Below, piece after piece: positions 3,632 through 20,683 of a stretch of 52,612 bases of DNA. Position numbers and translations under genes: made by a program. The stretch covers positions 1 to 52,612 of the forward strand of contig JBHLLT010000020.1 of the NCBI GenBank assembly GCA_048938855.1, in the 5' to 3' direction. Every line of letters starts with the position of its first letter. Within the stretch, counting starts at the first letter, position 1. Source of the stretch: Promethearchaeota archaeon. GTDB lineage: Archaea > Asgardarchaeota > Lokiarchaeia > Sigyniarchaeales > SOKP01. Below the pieces are notes generated by a model. The model was not told the origin of the DNA. It was given only the letters and a program-made list of their open reading frames with translations, and ran no database searches.

Positions 3632-5113
3632 TTAGATTGTCTCTCCCGTAATTCTATTAACTTTTAAGTGTCGAAATCGAGCACTACTTCGAGTGATTTC
3701 TTCACTGGTTAATATTTTCTTAACAACTTCATCTGGGAATAAATATTTTGCCAAGTGGATTATCATTTCTTTAGTCTCAATACAATTAAATAATTTCAAA
3801 CTTTCAATTGAGTAAAATAGTTCACTTATCAAATCATAATTTGTATCTACAGATATATCAAGAAGTTCTAAATTTCTATAAATTCTTTGTACTATATTTT
3901 TCAATAAGTTAAAATCCGCTAGCTTTTCGAGAGAGTTTTGCATATAATTTAAAAAAAGAACGTAATATGTAGCTTCAGAAGTAATAAAGCCATCCCGATA
4001 TTGTTTTATGCCCTGAGGATTGATACGTTTTTCAATTTCGTCAATAATTGCTTTAACATCATCCTCCATATCACTAACTCCTAATTGTCTATATATTTTT
4101 AAGATTACCACTAATTGGGAAGTCTCAAGGGTTTGTAAATAGTTAGGTTCGAAAAATCTCGACTCCGTTTTCACAAGTTTATTTATTTGCTGGTGAGTTA
4201 ACCATAATTTCATTAATATGGTGGATTTGAAAAAATAATAAGCACCATCTGTAGCCTCGATGAGTGGAGATTCATATCTATCTTGAGCTTCGTCTAGTAA
4301 TTCCAGCAAAAACATAGTAATCTTTTCTTTATCAAGATTTACATTCAAGGCTTTTCCTAAATAAATTCCGCAGAAATAAATATCAGGATTTTTTAAAGAA
4401 ACTAATGGAACATCTATCAACCACTCATCAAGATTTTCTTCTATATATGATTTTATATGAGAAAAATTAATCAATTTTTGGAGATGGAAGAATTCAATAA
4501 TTCTATAAATTAAATATATTAGTTGAAGTTTATACTGAGGTTCTTCTAAATCCTCTAGACTTTCAATTTCCTTTTTGCTTTCCCTCAATTTTTCAATGAC
4601 TTTTTCTTGGATGTGAATATATTTTCTTAAATTCTCAATTTTTTCAGGATCTCTTTCAATTAGAGTTTTTAAATTTCGTAATTCCATTATGAATTCAAGA
4701 GTAAGAAACCCCATTTCTTTAAATTTTAACATGAGAGGTGCTAAACCTTCCTCAACAAGATAAGAAGTAATTTTTTCCAAAAAAATCTCATAGACAAGAG
4801 GGGCAATTTTTTTATCATAAATCTGAATTGCCGAAGATATAATGTCTTTTTCATCATCCTTTAATTCCAAATAAGGATCTGTAAATTTATTCTCAATTTC
4901 AGTTTGTTCAAAGCCTAATTCAATAAAATAATTTATAAGGTCTAAACATAAATTTTTGTTAAATGTATCTAGATTTTCTTTTTCTATTATTTTATTACCA
5001 TAATTTTCTATGATTTTCGCTTTAAAATGATTTATTACATTATCATAAAAAAAATCGATATTGTTTAAGTACAGTTCTAAAATATTAAATATTCCTTGAA
5101 ATATCATTGCCAA
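3632..5113 (-). CDS. Hypothetical all-alpha protein; C-terminal half possibly prenyltransferase-like (alpha/alpha toroid) repeats
   Basis: 493-aa ORF. Motifs such as QGIKQYRDGFITSEATYYVL and EATDGAYYFF weakly recall prenyltransferase-type repeats. The fold call is tentative. Confidence 0.55.
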   Translation of the reverse strand: MAMIFQGIFNILELYLNNIDFFYDNVINHFKAKIIENYGNKIIEKENLDTFNKNLCLDLINYFIELGFEQTEIENKFTDPYLELKDDEKDIISSAIQIYDKKIAPLVYEIFLEKITSYLVEEGLAPLMLKFKEMGFLTLEFIMELRNLKTLIERDPEKIENLRKYIHIQEKVIEKLRESKKEIESLEDLEEPQYKLQLIYLIYRIIEFFHLQKLINFSHIKSYIEENLDEWLIDVPLVSLKNPDIYFCGIYLGKALNVNLDKEKITMFLLELLDEAQDRYESPLIEATDGAYYFFKSTILMKLWLTHQQINKLVKTESRFFEPNYLQTLETSQLVVILKIYRQLGVSDMEDDVKAIIDEIEKRINPQGIKQYRDGFITSEATYYVLFLNYMQNSLEKLADFNLLKNIVQRIYRNLELLDISVDTNYDLISELFYSIESLKLFNCIETKEMIIHLAKYLFPDEVVKKILTSEEITRSSARFRHLKVNRITGETI

Positions 5114-5519: not shown

Positions 5520-5888
5520 TTGAATGGCAAAAAAAAATTCTATCTCTTATTAGGAATATTTCAAATTCTATTGATTTTTATCGTATTATTTTCAGTTGAT
5601 GGATTAGTAACATTCGTTTCCGCTCAAGTTTCTGATTTTGATTATTATAATTCTCTAACTGCAGGAATGTTAGCAATAGCAGCATCTATCTCACTCGCAG
5701 CTTCGGTAATAGGAAGTGGATTAGCGTTAAAGACAGTCGGAACTGCAGCTATCTCTTCACTTTCTGAACGAGAGGAAACTTTTTTCAAAGCTTTTCTAGT
5801 AGTTGCTTTGTGTGAAGCTTTGGCAATCTATGGGTTAATAGTTGCTATCCTCTTATGGACAAAGATTCCTAATATAGTAGTAGGATAA
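5520..5888 (+). CDS. atpK: A/V-type ATP synthase subunit K (c, proteolipid), single hairpin with an N-terminal signal-like segment
   Basis: GSGLAL..VG.AA helix, and ALCEALAIYGLIVAILL containing the ion-carrying Glu. First gene of the ATPase operon. Confidence 0.9.
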   Translation: MNGKKKFYLLLGIFQILLIFIVLFSVDGLVTFVSAQVSDFDYYNSLTAGMLAIAASISLAASVIGSGLALKTVGTAAISSLSEREETFFKAFLVVALCEALAIYGLIVAILLWTKIPNIVVG

Positions 5889-5945: not shown

Positions 5946-7004
5946 TTGAGTACTATTGTTCCATCTTATGCTTATACTTATATTAAAATAGCATTTTTAA
6001 GGAGTTTGACTATAGATGAAATTTCTTTAGAGAATTTTAATAAGGCTAAAAATGTCAATAAAGTTTTAGAATCTATAGCTCCTTTTTACCCAGATTTAAA
6101 TATTAAGGAAAAAACTATCGAAAATATCGAATTAGCGTTATATCATAATTATATTAAATTGGTGGGAAAAATTATGCTTTATTCACCACAAAATATGAGA
6201 TTATTTCTAAAAAATTTCCTTTTAAAGTTTGAAATAATCAATATTAAACAAATTATAATTGCTTCAATTCTAGGAATAGATCAAAAAAACAAAAGAAAAA
6301 AAGTAAATTTTCAAGTTGAAGAATATTTAGATAATACAGAATTTATTGAAGATATGCTAAAAATCTCGTCTTTGGAAGAATTTCAATTATTTTTTAAAAA
6401 TACTGAATACAGAATTCCAATAAGAGAAGGAATATCATATTTTAAGAATTATAATGAAATTTTTGTCCTAGAAGCTTTTTTAGACAAATTCTATTATGAA
6501 AATATGATAAGACAATTAAAGAATTTAAATCCAAAAGAAAAAAAGATTATAACTGATTTTGTAAAATATAAAACAGAAATATACAATATAAACATTATCT
6601 ATCGAGGATTAAAAAACAATATTGAGAAGGATTTATTAAACCAATTTATTATTGATTATTATTTATTTTTAGACAGACGTAAAATTGATTATTTATTAAG
6701 TATTGAAGATCTCAATGTATTAATTTCATTAATAGTGAATTATATCAAAAATTATAAAGAAATAAAAAGATTTTATAAAAATATAGTTATTGACTCGGAA
6801 CATTTGGTTCATTCAATTGAAAAGATATATCTCAACTATTATTTTAAGAAACTCAAGATACAGATTGATGACATTGATTTAATCACGATTTTCAGGATAG
6901 TAGAGCTTATAATTAAAAAAGAAAATGAAATTCGTTTTGAGATTATCCCTAAAGTAATTGAAATTATTAATAAAAAATATGAAGAATTAAAATTATTAAA
7001 TTAA
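5946..7004 (+). CDS. atpC: A/V-type ATP synthase subunit C (Vo d-like)
   Basis: 352 aa. YAY..., KFEIINIK.II, TEY, LEAFLDKFYY, EIYNINIIYRG and ENEIR match the AC39 family pattern. Operon position agrees. Confidence 0.8.
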   Translation: MSTIVPSYAYTYIKIAFLRSLTIDEISLENFNKAKNVNKVLESIAPFYPDLNIKEKTIENIELALYHNYIKLVGKIMLYSPQNMRLFLKNFLLKFEIINIKQIIIASILGIDQKNKRKKVNFQVEEYLDNTEFIEDMLKISSLEEFQLFFKNTEYRIPIREGISYFKNYNEIFVLEAFLDKFYYENMIRQLKNLNPKEKKIITDFVKYKTEIYNINIIYRGLKNNIEKDLLNQFIIDYYLFLDRRKIDYLLSIEDLNVLISLIVNYIKNYKEIKRFYKNIVIDSEHLVHSIEKIYLNYYFKKLKIQIDDIDLITIFRIVELIIKKENEIRFEIIPKVIEIINKKYEELKLLN

Positions 7005-7026: not shown

Positions 7027-7338
7027 ATGAAAATATTTGATTGGGTTGAAGAAATCGAGAGTATATATAAAGATTTAATTGATAAAGCAAAGAAAGAAAA
7101 TCTTACTGAATTAGAAAATCTGAGGTCTGAGCGAGAAAAAAATATGGAAGAAAAAATTGAGGCAAACCACAAAATAGTAAATTCAGCATTGAATTCTCTG
7201 ATAAAAGAATTGGATAATAAAAATACTTTCATCGCAGAAAAAGTAAAGGAATTTAAGACAAAAATGGAAGAGCAATATCAAAACTCAAAAGACGAATTAT
7301 TTAATTTATTAATAAAAGATATTGGATTTGATTTTTAA
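7027..7338 (+). CDS. A/V-type ATP synthase peripheral stalk subunit H/G
   Basis: 103-aa charged coiled coil (EEIE...LIDKAKKE) inside the operon. TAATG overlap with the next gene. Confidence 0.65.
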   Translation: MKIFDWVEEIESIYKDLIDKAKKENLTELENLRSEREKNMEEKIEANHKIVNSALNSLIKELDNKNTFIAEKVKEFKTKMEEQYQNSKDELFNLLIKDIGFDF

Positions 7339-7667
7339 TGGCTGGGCAGAAAATTCATATTTTAGGGGGGGAAGACATTGTTTTATTATTTGGACTTTTA
7401 GGAATTGATGGTACAATAATTGAAAATAGAGAAGATTTTCTTAAGACATTTGAGAGCTTAATTAAAGAATCTTCAATAGGAATGATAATTATCTTTATGG
7501 AGTTGCCCAATGAAACAATAGATTATATCTTGGACTTCAAGATTAGCAATAAAACTCCATTTATATATTTAGTGCCTAATATATTTCAATCCGATGTTAA
7601 AAACCGCGATATTTTTTATAATAAAATTTATGAATCTATTGAACAAATTATAACTTCAGAGATGTAG
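7338..7667 (+). CDS. atpF: A/V-type ATP synthase subunit F
   Basis: KIHILGGEDIVLLFGLLGIDG...IGMIII...PFIYLVP is the subunit F signature. Confidence 0.85.
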   Translation: MAGQKIHILGGEDIVLLFGLLGIDGTIIENREDFLKTFESLIKESSIGMIIIFMELPNETIDYILDFKISNKTPFIYLVPNIFQSDVKNRDIFYNKIYESIEQIITSEM

Positions 7668-7668
7668 A

Positions 7669-8394
7669 ATTATTTCAGAAACTGACAAATTAAAAGAACG
7701 GTTCGGTAGGCTGGGATTATACCTTATTGAAAAAGCTAAAGAAGAAATCAAATTATTAGATCAACAAACTCTTTTTCAAATTGCAGAAACAAAAAAGAAG
7801 TATAGTGAAAGAATAGCTGAGAGTTCATCTAAAGTTAAAAATAATTTTATTGAAAATTATAATAAACGTTTAAATAATGCTTTATCTTCAACTCTTTTAA
7901 AAATAAAAGAAGAAACTTTGAATGTAAAAAATGAATTAATTTCACACTTAATTATTGACTTAAATCGAGAACTACAAAAGAAAATAAACGATAATTATTC
8001 AAATTATATAAAATTTTTATTAGAGATATTTATTTCTATCAAACATTTAATTGATAAACCTCCTGAAATCGTAATAAATTTCAATTCAAGAGATTATGAA
8101 TACTTTATTAAAAATTTCGATAAAATTCAAAAGATCTTTGAGAATAAAGTGATATTAAATCCTTCCCAAGAAGAATTTATAGGAGGATTTAAAATTTTAC
8201 AAACCAAAATGAATATTTCATATGATTTTTCAATTACAAGTTTAATAAATAAAAGAAGATCAGTAATTGAAATTGAATTTTCAAAAATCTTTTCTAATAT
8301 TTATTTTAAAATTAATGAAATAATACAAGACTATGAAAAATTTATCCTAAATCAAAAAAAAGCAATAAATGAATATTTAAAAAATTATGACTAA
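7669..8394 (+). CDS. atpE: A/V-type ATP synthase subunit E (start probably ATT 7669/7672 or CTG 7711, not TTG 7918)
   Basis: The frame is open from 7654 and encodes the N-terminal coiled coil (GLYLIEKAKEEIK...). The C-terminal domain has NSRD and IGGFKIL...YDFS. Confidence 0.8.
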   Translation: MISETDKLKERFGRLGLYLIEKAKEEIKLLDQQTLFQIAETKKKYSERIAESSSKVKNNFIENYNKRLNNALSSTLLKIKEETLNVKNELISHLIIDLNRELQKKINDNYSNYIKFLLEIFISIKHLIDKPPEIVINFNSRDYEYFIKNFDKIQKIFENKVILNPSQEEFIGGFKILQTKMNISYDFSITSLINKRRSVIEIEFSKIFSNIYFKINEIIQDYEKFILNQKKAINEYLKNYD

Positions 8395-10237
8395 AACAAG
8401 CAAAACTGCATACGAAGAGCTTACTTCAGGTTATATATCATCTATAAATGGGTCATTAATTGAAATTAAAGGTTTTGAGAAAGAAGTGCGCATTCATGAT
8501 TTAGTGAGAGAATCTGAACATAATATTTTAGGGGAAGTGATCCAGATCTATTCAAATCATGTAACTGCTCAATGTTTCGAAAATACAAATAATTTAAAAC
8601 TCGGAGAAAAAGTGATTAATCTAAAAGAACCATTGTCAATGGAATTGGGTCCTGGATTACTAGGTAACGTTTTCGATGGTATTCAAAGACCCTTAGATAC
8701 CACTTTTAAGACAACCCATAAAGGTTTTTTAGAGAGGGGAAATGATCTCCCTTCCTTATCCAGGGTTAAAAAATGGCATTTTAGACCCTTAAAAAAAGTT
8801 AAAGATCCGGTAAGTTCAGGTGATATTATTGGAACTGTGCAAGAGACTGATTTAATTGAACATAGAATACTAGTACCGATTGGAGTTTCAGGAAAATTAA
8901 CTAATATAGTTAAAGAAGGAGATTATACAATCACGGATGAGATATATTCTGTAAGTATTAAAGATCATGAAAAAACTTTCTCTATGTTGCAAAAATGGCC
9001 AGTCACTAAAAGTAGACCGTATAAAAGGCGAGAAAGTCCAAATGAACCGTTAATAACGGGTATGCGAGTAATAGATTTATTATTTCCAATAGCAAAAGGA
9101 GGAACTGTAGCAGTACCGGGGGGTTTCGGGACTGGTAAGACTGTCATTCAACAATCATTAGCTAAATGGTGTAACGCAGATGTTATCATTTTTGTAGGAT
9201 GTGGAGAACGAGGAAATGAGATTGCTGATGTTTTAAAACAATTTACAGAAATTATAGATCCAAAAAGTGGAAGACCCTTATTGGATCGTATAATACTAAT
9301 TGCTAATACATCAAATATGCCAGTATCTGCTCGTGAAGCAAGTATTTTCTCTGGAGTAACAATTGGAGAATATTATCGAGATATGGGGTATGATGTTGCG
9401 GTATTAGCAGATAGCACCTCAAGATGGGCAGAATCTTTACGAGAAATTTCAGGTTTATTAGAAGAGATGCCCGCTGAAGAAGGTTATCCCGCATATTTAC
9501 CTTCAAAAATCTCAAGTTTTTATGAAAGAGCAGGAGTTGTAAATATTTTAGGGGAAAACGATACAAATAACGAAAGATTTGGGTCTTTAACTATTATTGG
9601 TTCAGTATCACCACCTTCTGGAGATTTTAGTGAACCGGTAACAGCAACGACTAAACGTTTTGTCCAAGCTTTCTGGGCTTTAGATGCAAGCTTAGCTTAT
9701 TCTAAACATTATCCTGCTATAAATTGGCTAAATTCATATTCAAATTATCCTGAGTACATAGTCGACTGGTGGGTTGATAAAGATATATTTTGGCCAGAAA
9801 TAAACGTCGATTGGTATGAATGTAGAAATCAAATAAATAATATCCTCTCACAGGAGAATGAATTGAAAAATATTATGCAATTAATTGGAGAAGAAAACTT
9901 GCCCGAAGATCAGCAATTAATTCTGTTTATTACAAAATTGATAAGAAATGGTTATTTAATACAAAATGCGTTTGATAACATAGATAATTTCACCGATATT
10001 AAAAAGTTAATAGGGCAAATCAAGTTAATTCTTTTGTTATATAAAGAAGGGAAAGAATTATTAAAATCAGGTTATTTAATTGAAGATATTAAAAGTCTTA
10101 GCATGATTGATGATATTCTAAGAATTAGTTATTCAATTTCAAATGACGATTTTTTCAAAATAGAGAACTTAAAGAAAAGGTTAATTAGTGAAATCGAATC
10201 ATTAAAATTATCATTTGGTGTGTTAAAAGAGAAATGA
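8387..10237 (+). CDS. atpA: A/V-type ATP synthase catalytic subunit A (copy 1, canonical motifs)
   Basis: [18 protein letters not shown], Walker [47 protein letters not shown] and GDFSEPVT. Confidence 0.97.
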
Positions 10238-11625
10238 GTGTAATTTATGGGAAAATCCAACAAATTATTGGACCTTTAATATTCTTAAGTAATGAACATG
10301 ATGTGCAATATGGAGAGATAGTTAAAATTATTACAAATGATGGAATGGAACGAACTGGTCAAGTCGTTAAAATAAATGAAGCCTCCATAATTGTAGAAGT
10401 GTTTGAAGATACCGGCGGTTTATCTTCAGAAAATTCTAAAATTCTTTTCACTGAAGATTCCTTTAAAGTTAAACTATCAAATGATATGTTTGGTAGAACA
10501 TTCAATTCAATAGGAAAACCTATTGATATAAATACAAAAAGAGTTTTAGATTCTGAGTTGATAACAGAAGTAGAACGTGATATAAATGGTACACCCATTA
10601 ACCCCTTTGCTAGAGAGTATCCATCTGAAGTAATACAGACAGGTGTATCAGTAATCGATGGCCTTTTTACATTAATAAGAGGACAAAAACTTCCAATATT
10701 TAGTGGACAGGGAATGCCTCATAATGCATTAGCCGCTCAAATTGTTACTCAAGCGAAAGTCTTAACAGAAGAACCTTTTTTAATAATTTTTTGTGGAATA
10801 GGAATTATCCAAGATGAAGCAATTTATTTCTTAAATAGATTTCAAGAAAGTGGAAACATCCAGAATATAATTTCCTTTATTAATTTTGCAGATGATCCGA
10901 TAATGGAACGATTAATTATACCTAGAGTAGCATTAACCACTGCAGAATATTTTGCTTTTGACAAAGATATGCATGTTCTTGTTATTTTAATCGATATGAC
11001 CAATTATGCAGAAGCTTTAAGAGAACTTAGTTCAGCTAAAGAAGAGATTCCTAGTAGAAAAGGTTATCCTGGATACCTTTATACGGATTTTGCGTCAATT
11101 TATGAGCGAACAGGTAAAATAAAAGGTAAAAAAGGTACCATAACTCAAATACCAATACTTACAATGCCCAACGATGATATAAGTCATCCAATTCCAGATA
11201 CTACGGGTTACATTACTGAAGGACAACTTGTACTTAGCAGAAATTTATATAAAACCGGAATATATCCTCCTTTTGAAGTTTTAGCTTCTATTTCTCGTCT
11301 TATGAAAGATTCTATAGGCAAAGATACAACAAGAGAAGATCATACAGATATAAGTTCCCAATTATTAGCCTCATATTCCAATTCCCTTGAAATCAGAGAT
11401 CTAATTTCGATAGTGGGAGAAGATGGGCTGACTCTTAATCAAAAATTTAATCTAAATTTTGGAATAGCTTTTGAAAATAAATTTTTGAATCAAGATATGG
11501 ATGAAAATCGTGATTTTTCAAAAACATTTGATATTGCATGGACTGCTTTATCGGAGATTCCCAAAAATCAGTTGATTAGAATTCACCAACAATTTATAAA
11601 TAAATATTATAAAGAACAGGTGTAA
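10234..11625 (+). CDS. atpB: A/V-type ATP synthase subunit B
   Basis: [51 protein letters not shown] and SISRLM (Arg finger). ATGA overlap with atpA. Confidence 0.97.
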
Positions 11626-11632
11626 AAGTACA

Positions 11633-12286
11633 ATTAGTTTTAGAGAATTTAAGCCAACAAAGACTAATTTAATGAGTTTACAAAAACGGTTAAATTTTGC
11701 AGTCAAAGGAGTTAGTTTTTTAGAATTAAAGCAAGAACAACTAATATTTGAGATCAAAAACCTATGGAATAATTCTTATAAAAAGCAACGTAAGGAGTTC
11801 CTGAATTTATTAATAGAAGTTATTATAAATTTAAATCAAACGTATAAAGAAATGGGAAAAAATAATTTTAAAATTATAAGTAGCTTAAGTAAAATCCAAT
11901 TTAAACCATCAATTAATATTAAGTATATTAAAAAAATTGGAAACATCGTACCGGATATAGAATATGAACTTATAAAGGACGAAAATCTTCCTGCTTATTC
12001 GTTTGAGTATACCAGTCATTACTTAGACGATTTGATAAATATGTTAATTTCTCTTTTTAATAAAATGATCAAGCTGTCTGAAATTGAAGATATCATGCTA
12101 AAACATTCTCTTAGCTATAAGAAAATAACTAGAAGGATTCATGGATTAGAAAATATAATTATTCCATCCCTTAATTCAGATATTAAAAAAATTAAAGATA
12201 TATTAGAAGAACTTCAACGAGAGAATTTTGTAAGATTAAAAAATACAAAAGATTTAATATATAAAAAAAAAGAAGTGAATGTGTGA
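11633..12286 (+). CDS. atpD: A/V-type ATP synthase subunit D (start probably ATT 11633)
   Basis: In-frame KPTKTNL upstream of ATG 11672 completes the conserved PT..L..L..RL..A..G...L..K...L N-terminus. C-terminal RRIHGLENIIIP...LEELQRENFVRLK. Confidence 0.9.
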   Translation: MSFREFKPTKTNLMSLQKRLNFAVKGVSFLELKQEQLIFEIKNLWNNSYKKQRKEFLNLLIEVIINLNQTYKEMGKNNFKIISSLSKIQFKPSINIKYIKKIGNIVPDIEYELIKDENLPAYSFEYTSHYLDDLINMLISLFNKMIKLSEIEDIMLKHSLSYKKITRRIHGLENIIIPSLNSDIKKIKDILEELQRENFVRLKNTKDLIYKKKEVNV

Positions 12287-12291
12287 ATTAG

Positions 12292-14556
12292 ATGACCGAC
12301 AAAACCGTAATGTGTTTATTCGATATTAATATTCATAATAGTTATAAGGATCTTTTACTTCAAGAAATATCTCAAATACACTTAATTCATATAAGACCAA
12401 AGGAAACAGAAGACGAAACCCAAAAAAAGGGAGACCAAGAGATTGATAGAATCAAGAAATTAAGAGCTAATACCGAAGATTTGCTCAAAGCTCTCAAAAT
12501 CTCGGATTACGATCTGCAAAATTTAAAAGCTAAAAAAGCAGAAAGAATTGAATTCAAAGTGAAAGACGTTGATGAATTAATCACCTACTTATTAGAAGAA
12601 GTAGACTTTTATAGTAATCGTGTAGCAGAATTGGAGAGATACATCTCAAAAGTTAATATTGAACTAAGTAAAATGAAAACGATTGAGGAAGGTTATCAAT
12701 TTATGGAGAGAATGAACCTTACTCGAAATAATTTATCTAAATTAAATGAGTTATCATTTAGAGTATTTATTACGTTTTCAAAAAACTTAATTAACTTAAA
12801 AAATCTTTTTGAATTCTCGAAATTTCCAAATTTCTATGAAACACAAGATATTTCAGATGAAAGAACTATTTTTTATACTATTTATCCAGTAGATAAAGAA
12901 GATGAATTAAAAGAAAAAATCCGTATAATACATGCTGAAGAAGTCCCAATTTTGAAAAAATATTTACTTTCTGATGGGATTAACTTTAATAGAATTTCTA
13001 GTGAATTAAAACTGATAAATAACACATTAGATAAATACCAGAAAGAATTAGAGCGACTCAGGGATGACAATATATTATTATTCGCCGCTATACATGAAGC
13101 TGTTATAAATATAGAAGAGTATAACTGGGCTGAACGACAGTTCGAAGAGGTAACCTCCAACCGATCACAACTTAAATTTTTTATTCCAGTGGTTAAAAAA
13201 GATGCTATACAACAAAGATTGATAGATGTTTTTAAAGATAAGATAGCCATTCACTCAGTTGAAATTTCAAAAAAGCCGCTTGTAATTTCAGAAGAAGAAA
13301 ATCAGGAATTAGATTTAAATAAATCTCCTGTTAAAAAACCATATAAAAGTGAAAAATTTGAACCAAATGAAGTAGAAACGAATGAAGATTTAAGAGAAAG
13401 CACTCCTAGAATCATGAAAAATAATTTTCTGGTAAGACCTTTTGAAACATTGACTAGAATGTATGGTACCCCTTCATATTCTGAAATTGATCCTACTCCT
13501 TTTCTGGCAGTAATGTTTCCACTCTTATTTGGAATTATGTTTGGAGATATCGGACACGGGTTAGTCTTGATAATAGCGGGTCTATTAGGAGCCTTTTTGT
13601 TCAGAAATAAAAAAGGGACTGATTTTTTAAATTTTTGTTGGATCATCTTTTATTGTGGTTGGGGGGCTATTTTATTTGGATTTTTGTATGGTGAATCGTT
13701 TGGAGCGCCTAATCTTTTTGGCCTCCCATTAACTCCAGTTACTCTACCTTTTACAAGTATCACATTGCATGATCCTATCAATGATCCTTTCACTGTTTTC
13801 AAATTCGCAATATTAATTGGGGTGCTCCAGATTAACTTAGGTTGGTTAATTCAATTTTTGAATTATTGGAGACAATCGAGAAAATATTTAGCATTCTCAG
13901 ATTCTCTAGTCAAGATACTGCTATTGACAGGGGGTGCTATTTTGATTTTTATATACGGGTTTGATATGTATGCATGGTTAGCACCACCATATCCAATCTT
14001 GTTACCCTTAATCCCCGGTATATTATTAATTATCTTAAAACCTCTCGGTAAAATCTTTCATATTTCTTATTTAAAGAAGGAATCATATAAAGAATTAATT
14101 AGTGAAGGATCAATGGAAACATTTGAAACTCTACTATCTATAATAAGTAATGTTGCTTCATATATTCGATTATTAGCATTAGCTCTTGCGCATATTGCAT
14201 TAATGATTGCCATAGAAGCAATGGCAGGATTAATCGAAGGAGGAGGAGTCATTGGAGAAATAATTAGAACAGTAGGTTTGGTATTTGGAAATATTGTTGT
14301 TATTTTAATAGAAGGCTTATTAGTATTTTTAAATGCTCTAAGGTTAAATTTTTATGAATTCTTTTTCAAATTCTATCATGGTGCCGGTACTAAGTTTTAT
14401 CCATTCTATTTAGTTGATAATTTTTCAAAAATTGAATTTAAATTAAGCACTGATAAAGATATTATATTCGAAGAGATTGAAAAGGAAATTGAATCGAAAA
14501 AAACTCAAAAGGACATCATTGAAGCTACAAAATATATTTCTAAAAAATATTTATAA
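12292..14556 (+). CDS. atpI: A/V-type ATP synthase subunit I (a)
   Basis: YGTPSYSEIDPTP, FGIMFGDIGHG, SNVASYIRL (essential Arg) and LRLNFYEFFFKFY.G.G. Confidence 0.95.
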   Translation: MTDKTVMCLFDINIHNSYKDLLLQEISQIHLIHIRPKETEDETQKKGDQEIDRIKKLRANTEDLLKALKISDYDLQNLKAKKAERIEFKVKDVDELITYLLEEVDFYSNRVAELERYISKVNIELSKMKTIEEGYQFMERMNLTRNNLSKLNELSFRVFITFSKNLINLKNLFEFSKFPNFYETQDISDERTIFYTIYPVDKEDELKEKIRIIHAEEVPILKKYLLSDGINFNRISSELKLINNTLDKYQKELERLRDDNILLFAAIHEAVINIEEYNWAERQFEEVTSNRSQLKFFIPVVKKDAIQQRLIDVFKDKIAIHSVEISKKPLVISEEENQELDLNKSPVKKPYKSEKFEPNEVETNEDLRESTPRIMKNNFLVRPFETLTRMYGTPSYSEIDPTPFLAVMFPLLFGIMFGDIGHGLVLIIAGLLGAFLFRNKKGTDFLNFCWIIFYCGWGAILFGFLYGESFGAPNLFGLPLTPVTLPFTSITLHDPINDPFTVFKFAILIGVLQINLGWLIQFLNYWRQSRKYLAFSDSLVKILLLTGGAILIFIYGFDMYAWLAPPYPILLPLIPGILLIILKPLGKIFHISYLKKESYKELISEGSMETFETLLSIISNVASYIRLLALALAHIALMIAIEAMAGLIEGGGVIGEIIRTVGLVFGNIVVILIEGLLVFLNALRLNFYEFFFKFYHGAGTKFYPFYLVDNFSKIEFKLSTDKDIIFEEIEKEIESKKTQKDIIEATKYISKKYL

Positions 14557-14583: not shown

Positions 14584-15003
14584 ATGGAGAACCATAAAGA
14601 AAAACCCTCGAAGAAAAGTATTATTCGAAATACTTTTAGTTTAATATTACTACTAGTTGGAATTGCTATTCTTTATTATATTTTAATTGAATTTAAAACA
14701 AATCTCATAATTATCATTTTAATTGCAATTTTTATTCTTCTGACATTTGCTGGTCTTATTTTTAGAAGTCGAAAAAAAAAAAGGCTATATGATCAATTTT
14801 TTCCTGATAAAAAAACACAAACTCAACCTATTAAGAGAAGAGATGAGTTTAGGTTAGATAAAGAGGCTGATTTAAAGAAACTTTCTACTATTAATCTTAA
14901 TTTTAAATATCATAGACCTCTTATTAAAAAATGTGAAAATTGTGGAATGGTAATTGCAAGTTATGTAAAAAAGTGCCCAATATGTGGGGAAACAATCAAA
15001 TAA
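14584..15003 (+). CDS. Two-TM membrane protein with a C-terminal zinc ribbon
   Basis: Two hydrophobic helices, a basic RSRKKKR stop-transfer segment, and CENC-x10-CPIC. Confidence 0.7.
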   Translation: MENHKEKPSKKSIIRNTFSLILLLVGIAILYYILIEFKTNLIIIILIAIFILLTFAGLIFRSRKKKRLYDQFFPDKKTQTQPIKRRDEFRLDKEADLKKLSTINLNFKYHRPLIKKCENCGMVIASYVKKCPICGETIK

Positions 15004-15052: not shown

Positions 15053-16870
15053 ATGGGAATCGAGGAAGAAACTAAATATGGAATAATAAAATCAATTAAA
15101 GGTTCCTTAGTTGAAGTAAAGGGTTTAGAAAATGAAATTAGACTTCATGATCTTATTAAAATCACTAAGTATAATATATTAAGTGAAGTTATTCAAATAT
15201 ATCCTGATTATATTGTTGCTCAATGCTATGATGACACTTATAGATTAAAACTAAATGACAAAGTTATAAATCTCAAAAGACCATTATCTATGGAACTTGG
15301 TCCTGGATTGTTAGCAAATGTTTTTGATGGGATTCAGCGTCCTTTAGAAGCAATTTTTCAAAAGTTTAAAAATGGGCAATTAGAAAGAGGAATAGAATTT
15401 TCACCATTATCAAAAACAAAACAATGGCATTTTATTCCAATAAGAAAACTAGGGAAATTTTTAAATAGTGGAGATGTTGTTGGAACAGTTCAAGAAACTA
15501 AAAATATTATCCATAAAATAATGGTTCCCCCAGAAAATTCTGGAAAGTTATCTTTTATCGTAGAAGAAGGAGATTACACTGTAATTGATGAAATATATCG
15601 TTTAAAACGGGATAATGACGAAAAATCCTATACATTAATGCAGAAATGGCCAATTAATAAGAGAAGGCCATTCACAAAGAAAATTAAACCTTTTGAACCA
15701 TTAATAACAGGAACGCGTATAATAGATTTACTCTTTCCTATTGCTAAAGGTGGTACATTTGGAGTACCTGGAGGATTTGGAACAGGTAAAACAGTGATAT
15801 TACAAACTATAGCTAAATATTGTAACGCAGATATTATCATATTTGTAGGATGTGGCGAACCCGGTAATGAAATTGCAAATGTTTTAAAGCAGTTTACAGA
15901 AATTCAGGATATCACAAGTAAAACCCCATTAAGCGATCACATTGTTGTGATTGCAAATACATCAAATATGCCTGTTTCTGCTCGAGAAGCTAGTTTATTC
16001 TCAGGCGTTACTATTGGAGAATATTATCGAGATATGGGATATGATGTTGCAGTGATAGCTGATAGCATTTCAAGATGGGCAGAATCTCTTAGAGAGATTT
16101 CAGGACTATTAGAAGAAATGCCAGCTGAAGAAGGTTATCCTGCATATTTATCAACAAAACTTTCAAGTTTTTATGAACGAGCTGGTGTTTTTGAAACTCT
16201 AGGGCAAGATAATTTTGGAAAAAAAACTATAGGTTCATTAACAATAATCGGATCTATATCACCACCTGCGGGTGATTTCAGTGAACCAGTTACAACGGCT
16301 ACTAAACGTATAGTTCAAGGTTTATTAGCATTAGATGGTAGTTTATCATATCTAAAACATTATCCCGCTATTGATTGGTTAAAATCATATTCTAATTACC
16401 CTGAGAATATCTCGGAATGGTGGAATGAAAATGATATTGACTGGTCGGAAATAGATATTAATTGGCTGGAATGCCGAAGACAAGTAGATGAGATACTTTC
16501 AAGAGAGAATGATTTAAAATTTATAATTCAATTAATTGGTAAAAAAAATTTAGGAGATGATCAAAAACTTGATCTTTTTATTGCCAATTTAATTCGGAAT
16601 AGTTTTTTAATACAAAATGCATTTGAGGAAATAGACAATTTTACTGATCATAGAAAGTTATTAGGATTAATCAAGATAATTCTTCTATTATACAATGAAG
16701 GAAAAGTGCGATTGAAACAAGATTTTAAGTTTGATGATAGTAAAGAAAATGAAATATTAAATAGTATTATGCAAATCACACATGCTATCCCTAATGAAGA
16801 TTTTGACCAAATAATTGAATATAAAAACACACTATTTAGTAAAATTATAAATAAGCTTTTTTTAAAATAA
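15053..16870 (+). CDS. atpA: A/V-type ATP synthase subunit A paralog (copy 2; GER->GEP)
   Basis: Colinear with 8387..10237. Walker A GGFGTGKT is kept, but the motif reads GCGEPGNE. Confidence 0.92.
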   Translation: MGIEEETKYGIIKSIKGSLVEVKGLENEIRLHDLIKITKYNILSEVIQIYPDYIVAQCYDDTYRLKLNDKVINLKRPLSMELGPGLLANVFDGIQRPLEAIFQKFKNGQLERGIEFSPLSKTKQWHFIPIRKLGKFLNSGDVVGTVQETKNIIHKIMVPPENSGKLSFIVEEGDYTVIDEIYRLKRDNDEKSYTLMQKWPINKRRPFTKKIKPFEPLITGTRIIDLLFPIAKGGTFGVPGGFGTGKTVILQTIAKYCNADIIIFVGCGEPGNEIANVLKQFTEIQDITSKTPLSDHIVVIANTSNMPVSAREASLFSGVTIGEYYRDMGYDVAVIADSISRWAESLREISGLLEEMPAEEGYPAYLSTKLSSFYERAGVFETLGQDNFGKKTIGSLTIIGSISPPAGDFSEPVTTATKRIVQGLLALDGSLSYLKHYPAIDWLKSYSNYPENISEWWNENDIDWSEIDINWLECRRQVDEILSRENDLKFIIQLIGKKNLGDDQKLDLFIANLIRNSFLIQNAFEEIDNFTDHRKLLGLIKIILLLYNEGKVRLKQDFKFDDSKENEILNSIMQITHAIPNEDFDQIIEYKNTLFSKIINKLFLK

Positions 16871-16952: not shown

Positions 16953-17546
16953 TTAAGGTTTAAACCACTCAAAAAAATAATAACTACAAGTGAGTGGATT
17001 AGCAATTACAAATTTCTTTCTCACAGATGTAGCTAGACGCCCTGCTCTAACCATATCTATCGCAGTTATTTCAGAATCATGTGGTAACACATGAACCATA
17101 AAAAGAGAATGTTCCAGACCCGGCCCTTTTTTATAAACAACAAAATCTGCACCGAACTTTAATCCAGGTCTCGGAATATAGCCCTTTTTTCTCAAATCAT
17201 TGTAAATTATGTATTTTTCTTCAAACTTATGATGTATCTTCTTGGCGACTTCATAGAATTCTTTAGGATCCAAATATTTATTCTCTTTAGCATCGAAGAT
17301 AGTAATCTCATCATTTTCTAATAGATAGTATGCTTCTATTAATGATAATTCGCTAGGTTTAGAAAAATATTCTAATCTAGGCTTGTTAATTCCTAATGGT
17401 GATCCAAAAAATCCTTTTTTTACATATAAATACGAAGCATACAAAGGATTAAATATTATCACTCGAGAATTGATGAACTTAGCGGGAATTTTATCTGGAA
17501 CTTCTATTTCATCAAGAGAGATTTGTTCATCATTTGCTTGATTCAT
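16953..17546 (-). CDS. endA: tRNA-intron endonuclease, catalytic subunit
   Basis: ELSLIEAYYL, Y.DLR.KGY..RPGLKFGADFVVY..GPG..HS, and RLATSVRKK, giving the Tyr-His-Lys triad. Confidence 0.95.
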   Translation of the reverse strand: MNQANDEQISLDEIEVPDKIPAKFINSRVIIFNPLYASYLYVKKGFFGSPLGINKPRLEYFSKPSELSLIEAYYLLENDEITIFDAKENKYLDPKEFYEVAKKIHHKFEEKYIIYNDLRKKGYIPRPGLKFGADFVVYKKGPGLEHSLFMVHVLPHDSEITAIDMVRAGRLATSVRKKFVIANPLTCSYYFFEWFKP

Positions 17547-17669
17547 TATTTAGAAAATATATAAAATGATTTAATAATTCTTTCAATTTCTTTTCAATTA
17601 GATTAAATTATTTAAGATCTGAAAACATTAAATTTAATATTGAAGTATAAATGATTGGTGAATAGCATA

Positions 17670-18560
17670 ATGGTTATTAGAAGAGCAACCCATGCAGGTA
17701 GTTGGTATCCAGGGTCCAAAAAAGGATTACTTGAAGCATTAAAAGGATATTTTTTGGATACAGAATTTGGACCAAATGAAGAACCTAAATCCTTGAATAA
17801 AGAAAAAAGGACCATTATTGGGGGAGTTTCACCACATGCCGGAATGGAATATTCAGGGCCGTGTGCTGCATTTACTTATTTAAATGTATTTAAAGAAAAA
17901 ATCCCTGATACTGTATTAATATTAGGAACGGATCATATAGGATATAATAAAATAGCATTGATGGCAAAAGGAGAATGGGAAACTCCATTAGGAAATTTGA
18001 AGATTGATGAAGAATTATCAAACAAAATTTTGGAAGAGAGCAAGCTTATTAAAGAAGATAATTCCGTATTTACTGGATTCTCTGAGCAAGAGCATAATAT
18101 AGAAATACAATTACCATTTATAAAATTTTGTTCCATGGATACAGATGTCAAAATTGTGCCTCTTAAGATAGCTGTAACAAGAGATTTCAAACCACTTAAT
18201 GAAATATCTGATGATATTGCCAATGCAATAAGCCAAATGGATAAAGATATCGTTATCATAGCATCATCAGATATGTCACACAAACAAGTAAATAATTCAA
18301 TGCAATTACAGACTTTTAAAGAGATCGATTTAGCTGTGATTGAGGAATTTATACATTTAAATCCAGAAAAAACTCTTGAAGCTGCTTCAAAAACAACTAT
18401 TTGTGGTCCACAAACAATTACAACTCTAATGTTAACTAGTAGGAAGCTTAGTGCAAATAAAGGTGAAAAGTTAAAATATTACACAAGTTCTGAAAGAACT
18501 GGAAGAATTGGTGGATACTGTGTAGGATATTTTTCAGGAGTAATAATTAAAATTACATAA
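17670..18560 (+). CDS. MEMO1-family protein (AmmeMemoRadiSam protein B)
   Basis: R.ATHAGSWYP, SPHAGMEYSG, WETPLG, EHNIEIQLPF, ASSDMSH, TICG and VGY. GGTGA upstream of ATG 17670. Confidence 0.92.
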   Translation: MVIRRATHAGSWYPGSKKGLLEALKGYFLDTEFGPNEEPKSLNKEKRTIIGGVSPHAGMEYSGPCAAFTYLNVFKEKIPDTVLILGTDHIGYNKIALMAKGEWETPLGNLKIDEELSNKILEESKLIKEDNSVFTGFSEQEHNIEIQLPFIKFCSMDTDVKIVPLKIAVTRDFKPLNEISDDIANAISQMDKDIVIIASSDMSHKQVNNSMQLQTFKEIDLAVIEEFIHLNPEKTLEAASKTTICGPQTITTLMLTSRKLSANKGEKLKYYTSSERTGRIGGYCVGYFSGVIIKIT

Positions 18561-18595
18561 ATTATATTAATAACAAAAAAAGATTAAAAAAGAAA

Positions 18596-19699
18596 ATGCC
18601 GGAAGATAATGAAAAAGTTGAAGATTTCATAAGTCTTTGGAGAAAAAAGATGGAAAATGAAGGAGATAAACCTAGCGCTATTAGAGATACTTTAGAAAGA
18701 ATTCAAGAAGTAGAAAAAGAAAACCAGCTTTTAAGAAATAAAATACAAGATAATATAGATTTGATCAGTAGGACTGAAAAAGTTATTAAGAACACTTTGG
18801 ATGAAAACGAAAGATTGAAAGCTCAATTAGCACAAGGAGACTCTAGTGACGGAACTAGTGTAAGTGATCTTCAACAAAAGAATAAAGCTCTAAATAATAC
18901 AATCTTAGACTTAGAAAAAAAATTAGCAAATAAAGAAGTAGAATTACGGGCAAGAAATAACGAAAAGCTTGATTTAGAAGCAAAATTAGAAAAAGCTTCA
19001 AAAATAGCAGTAAGTTCACCCGCTATAGATTCTGCTGCAACAAACGCTGTACTAAAAGAACTCAAATCAGATTTAACTAAAAAACAAACTCAGATTGATG
19101 AATTACAAAATAAAATAAACCAGCTAACTATAGAAAATGAGGGCTTAAACCAACAATTAATAGAAGTGGAAAAGAGTAAATCATTGCCTATTGATTATGT
19201 TGTACCCGTAGAACAATCAAAACCATCGGTACTTAAACCTCAAACAACTCAGTCATCAACTGAAACCCTTGAAATATTATGCCAAGATCTTCAACAAGAT
19301 CTAAATAAATATAAAAGAAATATCGACCAATTAACTAAAGAAAAAGATGATCTTAAAAAAGCCCTTGAAGCTGGAGGATTTCAATTAGAACCTGAAGAAT
19401 TGAAAGAATTAAAACGAGAAAATGAAACATTAAAAAATGATATATCCCAATTACAGGAATCTTTAAAAATGAAACAACAAGAATCTCCTCAAATTAGAAA
19501 ACAAATTAATAGTCTACAAGAACAACTAAAAGAAAAAGATCTATTAATTGCCGAATTGAAATCTAGTCAGCAACCACAGCTCCCAATGCCAAAAGGACCA
19601 ATGGCAAACCTGGTAGAAGATTTACAGAACAAAATAAACAAATTAAAATCAACCATAGACGAAAAAAATAAAATTATCGAAGAATTAAAAGCATCATAA
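18596..19699 (+). CDS. Long segmented coiled-coil protein
   Basis: Heptad-rich E/K/Q/L segments separated by S/P-rich linkers. Confidence 0.7.
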   Translation: MPEDNEKVEDFISLWRKKMENEGDKPSAIRDTLERIQEVEKENQLLRNKIQDNIDLISRTEKVIKNTLDENERLKAQLAQGDSSDGTSVSDLQQKNKALNNTILDLEKKLANKEVELRARNNEKLDLEAKLEKASKIAVSSPAIDSAATNAVLKELKSDLTKKQTQIDELQNKINQLTIENEGLNQQLIEVEKSKSLPIDYVVPVEQSKPSVLKPQTTQSSTETLEILCQDLQQDLNKYKRNIDQLTKEKDDLKKALEAGGFQLEPEELKELKRENETLKNDISQLQESLKMKQQESPQIRKQINSLQEQLKEKDLLIAELKSSQQPQLPMPKGPMANLVEDLQNKINKLKSTIDEKNKIIEELKAS

Positions 19700-20683
19700 A
19701 TGAATACTCAAAATACAAATCATCCCTCTATTATTTTTGCCGGTCACTTTGCAATTGATAATATTATACGATTTAAGCGCTTAAATAAACCTACGCTCGG
19801 CGGGAGTGTATCATACTGTACCTTAGCATTGAGGAATTACGCCCAAGATGCTACAATAGGAATAATTTCACATATAGGTAAATTGAATTTTAATAATTCT
19901 CTTTTAGACAAGATTAAGAATAAAAAAATTGATCTAAAAGGAATCAAATATTCTCAAGTAAAAAATACTAATTTCGTCTTAGACTACTTTGATCATGCAA
20001 GGACTTTAACATTAAAATCTAAGAGTCCTGATCTTGATTTCAAGGATTTACCTATAGATTATCTTAATAATCCTCCAGATATATTTGTCCTTGTTCCTTT
20101 ATGTAATGAAATTTCTTATGACTATATAATACAAATTCTAACAAAATTTCCTGATGTTTATATTGGTATTGATTTGCAAGGATTTATTAGGAAGATCGAT
20201 GAGGATGGTAGAGTTGCATACGTTTATGATGATATAATCATCTCTAATATTAAAAAAATTATCAATTCAATTGGAGACAGATTGATTTTAAAAGGTTCAG
20301 AAGAAGAGATGAGTATACTAGCAGAAGAATGTGATGATTACGAAAAAATTATGCTTCACTGCAATAAATTTGAAAATGAAGGAATTTACATAATGACTTT
20401 AGGAGAAAAAGGATCCATGCTCACAAAAAGAGGAGAAAAGGTTCTTAATATACCTGCTTTTATTCCTAAAAAGGTTGTGGACGAAACTGGAGCAGGAGAT
20501 GTCTACTTTTCGATATTTTTGTATGAATTCATTCATTCTGATAAATCATGGGATTCAATTGAAAAAATTGCTTTACTCGCATCAGCAGCTGCTTCATTTT
20601 TGGTTGAGAAAAAAGGGCCAGCAGGTTTTGTATCTAAAAAAGCAGTTATAAAAAGAATGAGAAAAAAAAAATATATCAAGTAG
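19700..20683 (+). CDS. PfkB/ribokinase-family carbohydrate kinase
   Basis: GHFAID, LGGSVSY, MTLGEKGS and VDETGAGDVY (PfkB signature 2). Confidence 0.9.
   Translation: MNTQNTNHPSIIFAGHFAIDNIIRFKRLNKPTLGGSVSYCTLALRNYAQDATIGIISHIGKLNFNNSLLDKIKNKKIDLKGIKYSQVKNTNFVLDYFDHARTLTLKSKSPDLDFKDLPIDYLNNPPDIFVLVPLCNEISYDYIIQILTKFPDVYIGIDLQGFIRKIDEDGRVAYVYDDIIISNIKKIINSIGDRLILKGSEEEMSILAEECDDYEKIMLHCNKFENEGIYIMTLGEKGSMLTKRGEKVLNIPAFIPKKVVDETGAGDVYFSIFLYEFIHSDKSWDSIEKIALLASAAASFLVEKKGPAGFVSKKAVIKRMRKKKYIK

Follow-up and report, generated by a model that had tools for sequence, protein, structure and literature searches.

The only rotary ATPase cluster of this lokiarchaeial genome, which lies in the window (the whole stretch of 52,612 nucleotides analysed here), closes with a second gene for subunit A, A2, in which the arginine that binds the γ-phosphate or Pi is replaced by proline. 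This paralog is real, conserved and apparently undescribed, and it is an accessory subunit gene, missing from several sublineages of its family. Its sequence and the analogy to mutants of a bacterial F1 make it quite probable that A2 is largely non-catalytic. The account we favour, though with somewhat less than even confidence, is that it serves as a third kind of head subunit, binding nucleotide without catalysis, and suppresses ATP hydrolysis by standing in for an A.

The host genome is a metagenome-assembled genome (MAG) of 3.95 Mb with 30% GC, 97% completeness and 7% contamination. Its nearest protein matches carry Promethearchaeota/Lokiarchaeota labels. The genes of the cluster follow one another as K, C, H, F, E, A1, B, D, I, X and A2, all on the forward strand of this genome's contig, and no second rotor or membrane sector was found in the genome. 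Profile matches identify subunit K/c (the proteolipid, 5520–5888, with its carboxylate Glu in place), subunit C (d/AC39, 5946–7004), subunit F (7338–7667), subunit E (7657–8394) and the canonical catalytic subunit A1 (8387–10237, 616 residues), and the gene between C and F (7027–7338), which has no family match, is probably subunit H/G, judging from its size, position and synteny. Subunit B (10234–11625) retains its arginine finger, Arg355, and is followed by the rotor subunit D (11627–12286), subunit I/a (12292–14556; PF01496), a 139-residue protein termed X (14584–15003) that ends in a zinc ribbon and is predicted to have two membrane helices, and finally A2 (15053–16870), an intact open reading frame of 605 residues. 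The frame of subunit E is open from 7657 with the first common start at 7918, and its relatives measure about 244 residues from stop to stop; in subunit D, the ATG at 11672 comes after codons for conserved N-terminal residues. Since conserved coding sequence thus precedes the first ATG, GTG or TTG in both atpE (7657–7918) and atpD (11627–11672), the two genes probably use non-canonical starts.

The two A subunits of the window are both full-length, colinear and 63% identical without gaps. A2 is a full-length homolog including the non-homologous region (matches to PF00006, PF16886 and PF22919) and scores 690 bits against NF003220 (cut-off 470) but only 121 bits against the subunit B profile (cut-off 349); it falls below the TIGR01043 equivalog cut-off, as does A1. 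Where B has Arg355 and E. coli α has Arg376, A2 reads Tyr-Ser, and since it lacks the arginine finger it cannot stand in for B, so that a role as substitute for B was ruled out. The first-pass annotation had described two full-length A genes beside one B, with an Arg codon in one copy and a Pro codon in the other, and this description holds: B is single across the whole genome, A1 carries Arg275 (CGA, 9209–9211) and A2 carries Pro270 (CCC, 15860–15862). In an alignment to E. coli F1 β taken from NC_000913.3, the replaced residue corresponds to β R182 (R262 in E. hirae A) and hence is indeed the γ-phosphate or Pi ligand that it had been taken for. Across the 46 genome-derived A2 and 65 A1 sequences used for all residue counts, this position is Pro in every A2 and Arg in every A1.

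The counterparts of E. coli β K155, T156, E181, E185, D242, R246 and Y331 are all conserved in A2. Lys246, Glu269, Glu273, Asp337 of Walker B and Arg341 are invariant (46/46), residue 247 is Thr or Ser (Thr in 45/46), and aromatic residues of the adenine pocket are present in every A2 (Tyr or Phe at 437, Phe or Tyr at 524). The early observation that the second copy keeps Walker A (residues 240–247, 15770–15793, including Lys246 and Thr247) and the catalytic Glu (Glu269, 15857–15859, aligned with β E181) is correct, and its 355–366 loop is intact too. Two further changes that had been pointed out are present as described but carry no weight as signs of impairment: the one from DSTSR to DSISR concerns residue 339, which varies in A2 (Thr in 29, Ile in 17) and is Ile in E. 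coli β (I244), and the one from AFWALD to GLLALD is not clade-wide, many A2 retaining the Trp of this segment. Typical of A2 are Asn276 (15878–15880), which takes the place of an invariant Asp, Leu315 (15995–15997; Leu in 46/46 A2, Ile in 65/65 A1) and Leu434 (16352–16354) beside the adenine pocket. The Trp-rich insert (16415–16477 in A2) is common to the family's A1 and A2 in the alignment, as had been noticed, and is absent from P. horikoshii A and from Loki A subunits outside the family; the duplication within this lineage that had been read from it is as old as the family and not recent.

In E. hirae A, R262 begins the 'arm' helix (PMC5095293, PMC9336149), holds the γ-phosphate together with the P-loop Lys and the arginine finger of B, and stabilises the tight state (PMC5095293). 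The equivalent E. coli mutant β-R182Q has an ATPase activity of 0.020 as compared with 42 U/mg, no ATP synthesis and no Pi binding, with MgADP binding unaffected, and even the conservative change R182K brings activity down to 0.6% and abolishes synthesis (PMC3268026); no test of Pro at this position in engineered mutants was found in the literature. The arm helix of A2 begins at residue 270 in an AlphaFold2 monomer model (mean pLDDT 67, used for the helix start only). The first position of a helix is the one place in it where Pro is well tolerated, so Pro270 would remove the ligand without necessarily breaking the fold. A search for a compensating A2-specific Lys or Arg near the phosphate site found none.

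Reads covering 15860–15862, where Arg would have pointed to an error, give Pro in every case: a 1085-base contig of depth 42 from run X1 (possibly the source sample) is identical to the window over the codon (CCC), and runs X6 and X8 from two other studies have CCT, a synonymous Pro codon. Sequencing error or contamination as the source of the Pro is ruled out by these independent samples together with the family-wide motif. The exact eight-residue motif, GCGEPGNE, occurs in 75 of 135 family genomes from six genera, while a search of 265 other Asgard genomes did not find it, and a few further family genomes hold close variants with the Pro still there; the Pro-motif records among the matches listed include Loki_b31, Loki_b32, E44_bin85 (SOKP01) and the closed chromosomes bin108 and bin132. 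A wider occurrence of the motif in ATPases outside the family was considered and rejected, the bacterial matches that were inspected (80 of at least 118 loci looked at) being chance ones in unrelated frames.

Where contigs allow its position to be read, A2 nearly always lies at the end of the cluster, after I and X. Other Loki families, closed genomes included, have one A per operon, with Arg. In a tree of B, D, I, C and E, the early-branching members of the family have A2 and several nested groups are without it (whole-genome checks found none in G012, G150, G065, G146 and G157), which indicates that A2 is old in the family and was lost, or lost and regained, several times. In some groups without A2, X adjoins the next gene directly. 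The operon is split in the closed chromosome of G006 (L050, L051), with E-A-B-D at 2.19 Mb and I-X-A2 at 3.05 Mb, and in G078 and G079 A2 stands alone away from the operon (L250:1157-3061, L251:6072-7922) with the Pro kept.

Pairwise dN/dS is 0.11–0.22 for A2 and 0.08–0.14 for A1, the dN ratio of A2 to A1 is mostly 1.0–2.9, all four Pro codons are in use at position 270, and the A2 matches contain no internal stops, their frames being intact across six genera. The GCGEPGNE-type subunits with dN/dS below 1 that the first-pass annotation proposed to look for thus exist: the Pro is shared throughout the clade, in synteny with atpI, and purifying selection acts on A2 (0.11–0.22). Present in 75 of the 135 family genomes, the Pro is neither private to this genome nor under relaxed selection. 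The Pro copies form one clade within the genus (SH-aLRT 99, quick tree). With the diagnostic columns dropped, clean monophyly of A2 was not obtained family-wide, at least partly because of gene conversion. In G062 (L082) and G063 (L081), A1 and A2 are 82% identical at the amino acid level, and over most of the gene the two copies agree at 0.70–0.73 of four-fold sites as against a background of 0.41, which points to gene conversion between them. The A2 of both genomes nonetheless keeps Pro270, Ile265, Leu315, Leu434 and Lys498, and A1 keeps the canonical residues. This retention through homogenisation, which counts as one event in two related genomes, is the strongest sign in the sequences that two types of subunit are kept on purpose.

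The interfaces of A2 were assessed with a structural model and with a map of constraint. A model of A2 with B, built with ATP and Mg, reached an ipSAE of 0.74 (best control 0.00), with at least 80% of contacts shared between runs and a partner pLDDT of at least 86; the mark that it passed is reached by 58 of 80 solved pairs and 2 of 110 mismatched pairs, but since A:B is a textbook solved pair, the pass may reflect likeness to solved structures and not binding. The modelled contact is the catalytic interface and includes Pro270, Asn276 and Leu434. For the constraint map, the amount by which column entropy in A2 exceeds that in A1 (dH) was computed over 42 genomes with both copies, taking the contacts of the A2:B model as the catalytic face and those of B mapped onto A as the other face. 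The dH is 0.10 for the catalytic face, 0.21 for the other face and 0.11 for the ligand site, with a matched background of 0.19–0.26, figures whose certainty is overstated in that related genomes are not independent. The suggestion that A2 may bind nucleotide can therefore be carried further: with the ligands kept and the faces towards B constrained, it probably does, and according to the model it can adjoin B.

In contrast to these surfaces, the rotor-facing helix-turn-helix loop of A2 (residues 490–504, 16520–16564), the equivalent of DELSEED, is its most relaxed segment, with a dH of 0.89 against a background of 0.21 ± 0.11. In a sliding scan this loop and the C-terminal residues 552–566 exceed the 99th percentile of shuffled maxima; next most relaxed are the loop after the arm and then the helix after the P-loop with the hinge, the last of these not exceeding the 95th percentile. 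The net charge of the rotor loop is −3 or −4 in 61 of 65 A1 and −2 to +1 in 44 of 46 A2, and a loop Glu that is invariant in A1 is Lys in 34 of the 46 A2 (Lys498 here). However, torque in F1 requires no specific rotor-loop residues (PMC5380711), so the relaxed loop of A2 does not prove uncoupling. When A1, B, D, F, E, K, C and X were compared for co-variation with the presence of A2, only scattered conservative differences appeared, in a comparison that counted G078 and G079 as lacking A2 although both hold the relocated copy. A2 itself displays no new conserved surface patch.

The damper reading builds on the observed sequence, conservation and distribution of A2, on the residue equivalences and the constraint pattern, on established biochemistry for the effect of losing the arginine and on a predicted contact with B; from these we infer its incorporation into the ring, its inactivity in this enzyme and its physiological role. 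A2 would sit between B subunits in place of one of the three A, where it would bind Mg-ADP and, weakly, ATP. Lacking the arginine, it would have no hold on the γ-phosphate or Pi and could not form the tight state, so that its site would support neither hydrolysis nor synthesis of ATP and would not drive the rotor by a power stroke. With one A2 in it, a head would be expected to stall in the hydrolysis direction, which would make A2 an optional built-in damper of wasteful ATP hydrolysis, whether or not ion-driven rotation past the idle site is possible. The brake under energy limitation that the first-pass annotation proposed may be such a damper and is the leading candidate mechanism, at less than even odds. 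Several observations speak against a damper. Glu269, Glu273 and Arg341 never vary, although a subunit that was simply dead could do without them. In F1, mutants of other key charged residues continue to rotate, 10^3–10^4 times slower (PMC5380711), and A2 may accordingly be slow and not dead. A true brake might also be expected to tighten its rotor contacts and not to relax them, there is no convincing co-variation of partners, and A2 is absent in many sublineages and detached in G078 and G079.

A relaxed rotor loop and hinge region next to preserved B-facing surfaces would also suit a protein that never enters the working motor, namely an assembly placeholder or storage form that pairs with B in rotor-free A:B dimers or rings, stops these consuming ATP and later gives way to A1. 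The accessory distribution of A2 agrees with such a role, as does the hydrolysis of ATP by isolated prokaryotic V1 parts (PMC5910484). We nevertheless consider it unlikely, if worth keeping in mind, since the 355–366 loop of A2 is as conserved as that of A1 and since Lys498, present in 34 of 46 A2 and retained through homogenisation, suggests that its position still matters. This central loop also lines the rotor cavity in solved heads, and exchange of subunits within assembled rings is not known from A/V-ATPases. The invariance of Lys246, Glu269, Glu273, Asp337 and Arg341 in all 46 A2 argues for a subunit that is still catalytic, slow or of altered specificity, acting as a timer or low-turnover isoform, with the arginine finger of B and Arg341 partly covering for the lost Arg. 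F1 catalysis withstands single alanine changes at key residues (PMC5380711), and the fixed second-shell changes Leu315, Leu434 and Asn276 look like retuning. What makes this account rather improbable is that A2 has no specific Lys or Arg near the phosphate site and that even R182K has 0.6% activity and no synthesis (PMC3268026).

A shade less probable still is a change of gear, in which two A1 and one idle A2 would process two ATP in each rotation, not three, and raise H+/ATP by half; if true, a weaker ion-motive force would suffice for ATP synthesis, or each ATP would pump more ions. Such an idler needs a site without Pi binding and a loose grip on the rotor. H+/ATP sets the minimum pmf and every F1 studied has three catalytic subunits (PMC12229609), and the ancient passage from six sites to three has been proposed to run through duplication and subsequent loss of catalysis at some of them (PMC10656485). 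Yet two of the three steps would each still need nearly the energy of a full ATP, and co-adaptation in the partner subunits is not seen. Hybrid F1 work is moreover reported to show strong cooperativity between sites, one dead site usually stopping the motor, although a literature search for such work returned nothing. That A2 follows X in nearly all loci, stays with I and X in G006 and is an orphan in G078 and G079 would fit an off-ring sensor of nucleotide or energy charge bound to another partner, for example the zinc-ribbon protein X; this has a slim chance at best, as X is family-wide, is represented after atpI in another family by homologs and stays where A2 was lost, and as A2 has both B faces constrained and no new conserved surface patch. 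Finally, a decaying duplicate or artefact without function can hardly be credited: A2 evolves somewhat faster than A1 (dN ratio mostly 1.0–2.9), was lost repeatedly and comes here from a MAG with 7% contamination, but its dN/dS does not exceed 0.22, its frames are intact in six genera, its Pro is invariant with four codons in use and read in independent samples, and it survives homogenisation.

Compared with the A/V-type subunit A of P. horikoshii (1VDZ/3M4Y), T. thermophilus (3A5C) and E. hirae (3VR2-3VR6), A2 has the same length and the AtpA/NtpA domain order of barrel, non-homologous region, nucleotide domain and helical C-terminus, and it shares Walker A and B, the catalytic Glu, the adenine pocket and the B-facing motifs. 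It differs in that the invariant Arg is Pro, the arm Asp is mostly Asn and the acidic charge of the rotor loop is lost, and in that its genome also encodes a canonical A, alongside only one B. Like B and F1 α, whose accepted origin lies in duplication followed by loss of catalysis (PMC10656485), A2 is a duplicated catalytic subunit that has lost catalytic residues (PMC10624635, PMC10656485), and F1 α also keeps Walker A and has Asn at the position of 276. Unlike A2, however, B and α lost the catalytic Glu, supply an arginine finger and are pre-LUCA, with a degenerate P-loop in B; A2 keeps the Glu and the P-loop, lost the Arg, has no finger, is 57–82% identical to A1, is optional and is young, being confined in age to the family. 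By descent A2 is a subunit A, but one that lacks both a defining catalytic feature of A and the defining features of B and α.

The E. coli β-R182Q and R182K mutants lost the same position as A2 and predict for it no Pi binding or synthesis, about 0.05–0.6% ATPase and retained MgADP binding (PMC3268026), but they are laboratory mutants of an F-type enzyme altered in all three sites, whereas A2 is a natural, coexisting paralog. IF1, ε, ζ, subunit H of eukaryotic V1 and Mg-ADP inhibition may serve the same purpose as A2 and show no homology to it; these known inhibitors of hydrolysis are small separate proteins or states, whereas A2 would replace a ring subunit. Duplicate operons (that of G043, N-ATPases and the F1-like ATPases of mycoplasmas) also bring extra head genes, but these come with their own partner subunits, and the duplicate of G043 keeps the Arg, whereas the A2 locus duplicates A alone.

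No published description of the A2 paralog was found in the literature on duplication, pseudoenzymes and residue roles or in PMC10656485 and its supplements, a search whose scope lay outside subscription journals. Two ATPase types have been given for one Loki MAG, possibly A1 and A2 (PMC7997004). Rotary ATPases are described with three identical catalytic subunits, from which a natural, selected and optional paralog without the Arg would depart; the motor would be regulated or re-geared in a new way, through exchange of a ring subunit instead of through an added inhibitor. The hosts of A2 are slow-growing, energy-limited relatives of eukaryotes. Heads of A1, A2 and B with fewer than three working sites might avoid wasting ATP and still make it, two per turn, with a lower ion-motive force, a combination that we hold to be rather doubtful; if true, it would re-enact in living cells the ancient silencing of duplicated catalytic subunits, with its rise in the H+/ATP ratio. 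As A2 differs from A1 at few fixed sites, it offers a tractable model for the origin of the non-catalytic B and α, and also for what a head with one silent site can do.

Protein X follows atpI in 113 of the 126 family genomes matched, whether or not A2 is present, and closed genomes from a second Loki family (L054–L056) have X-like proteins after atpI too. Being older than A2, family-wide and retained where A2 was lost, X was rejected as a dedicated partner of A2; it is a candidate for an extra subunit or regulator of the Loki A-ATPase. In some cases X has two zinc ribbons. The spacers between X and A2 measure 9–62 bases and yielded no common motif by eye, and a promoter and terminator scan with a sigma-70 model, which is ill-suited to archaea, remained at chance level.

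Subunit K (5520–5888) consists of one hairpin with an N-terminal hydrophobic segment, and since by eye it lacks the Ser or Thr after the Glu that is typical of sodium binding, the enzyme is probably proton-coupled. Downstream of the cluster, a conserved block (16953–20683) comprises, by eye, a convergent tRNA-splicing endonuclease-like gene followed by MEMO-like, coiled-coil and PfkB-like genes; some genomes carry the ATPase operon in inverted orientation between the block and a gene for 493 residues at 3632–5113. G043 (L052, L053) has two complete-looking A-ATPase operons, both with the canonical Arg, one of which is the closest outgroup to the operon of the family studied here. Three genomes of 92–98% completeness, two of them in about 10 contigs (G018, G086 and G156), give no PF00006 match anywhere and have no X, a possible loss of the entire rotary ATPase or the result of assembly gaps. 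In two genomes without A2, the A1 frames measure 1153–1157 residues (L103 in G074, L119 in G095) owing to an insertion of about 540 residues, which is probably an intein.
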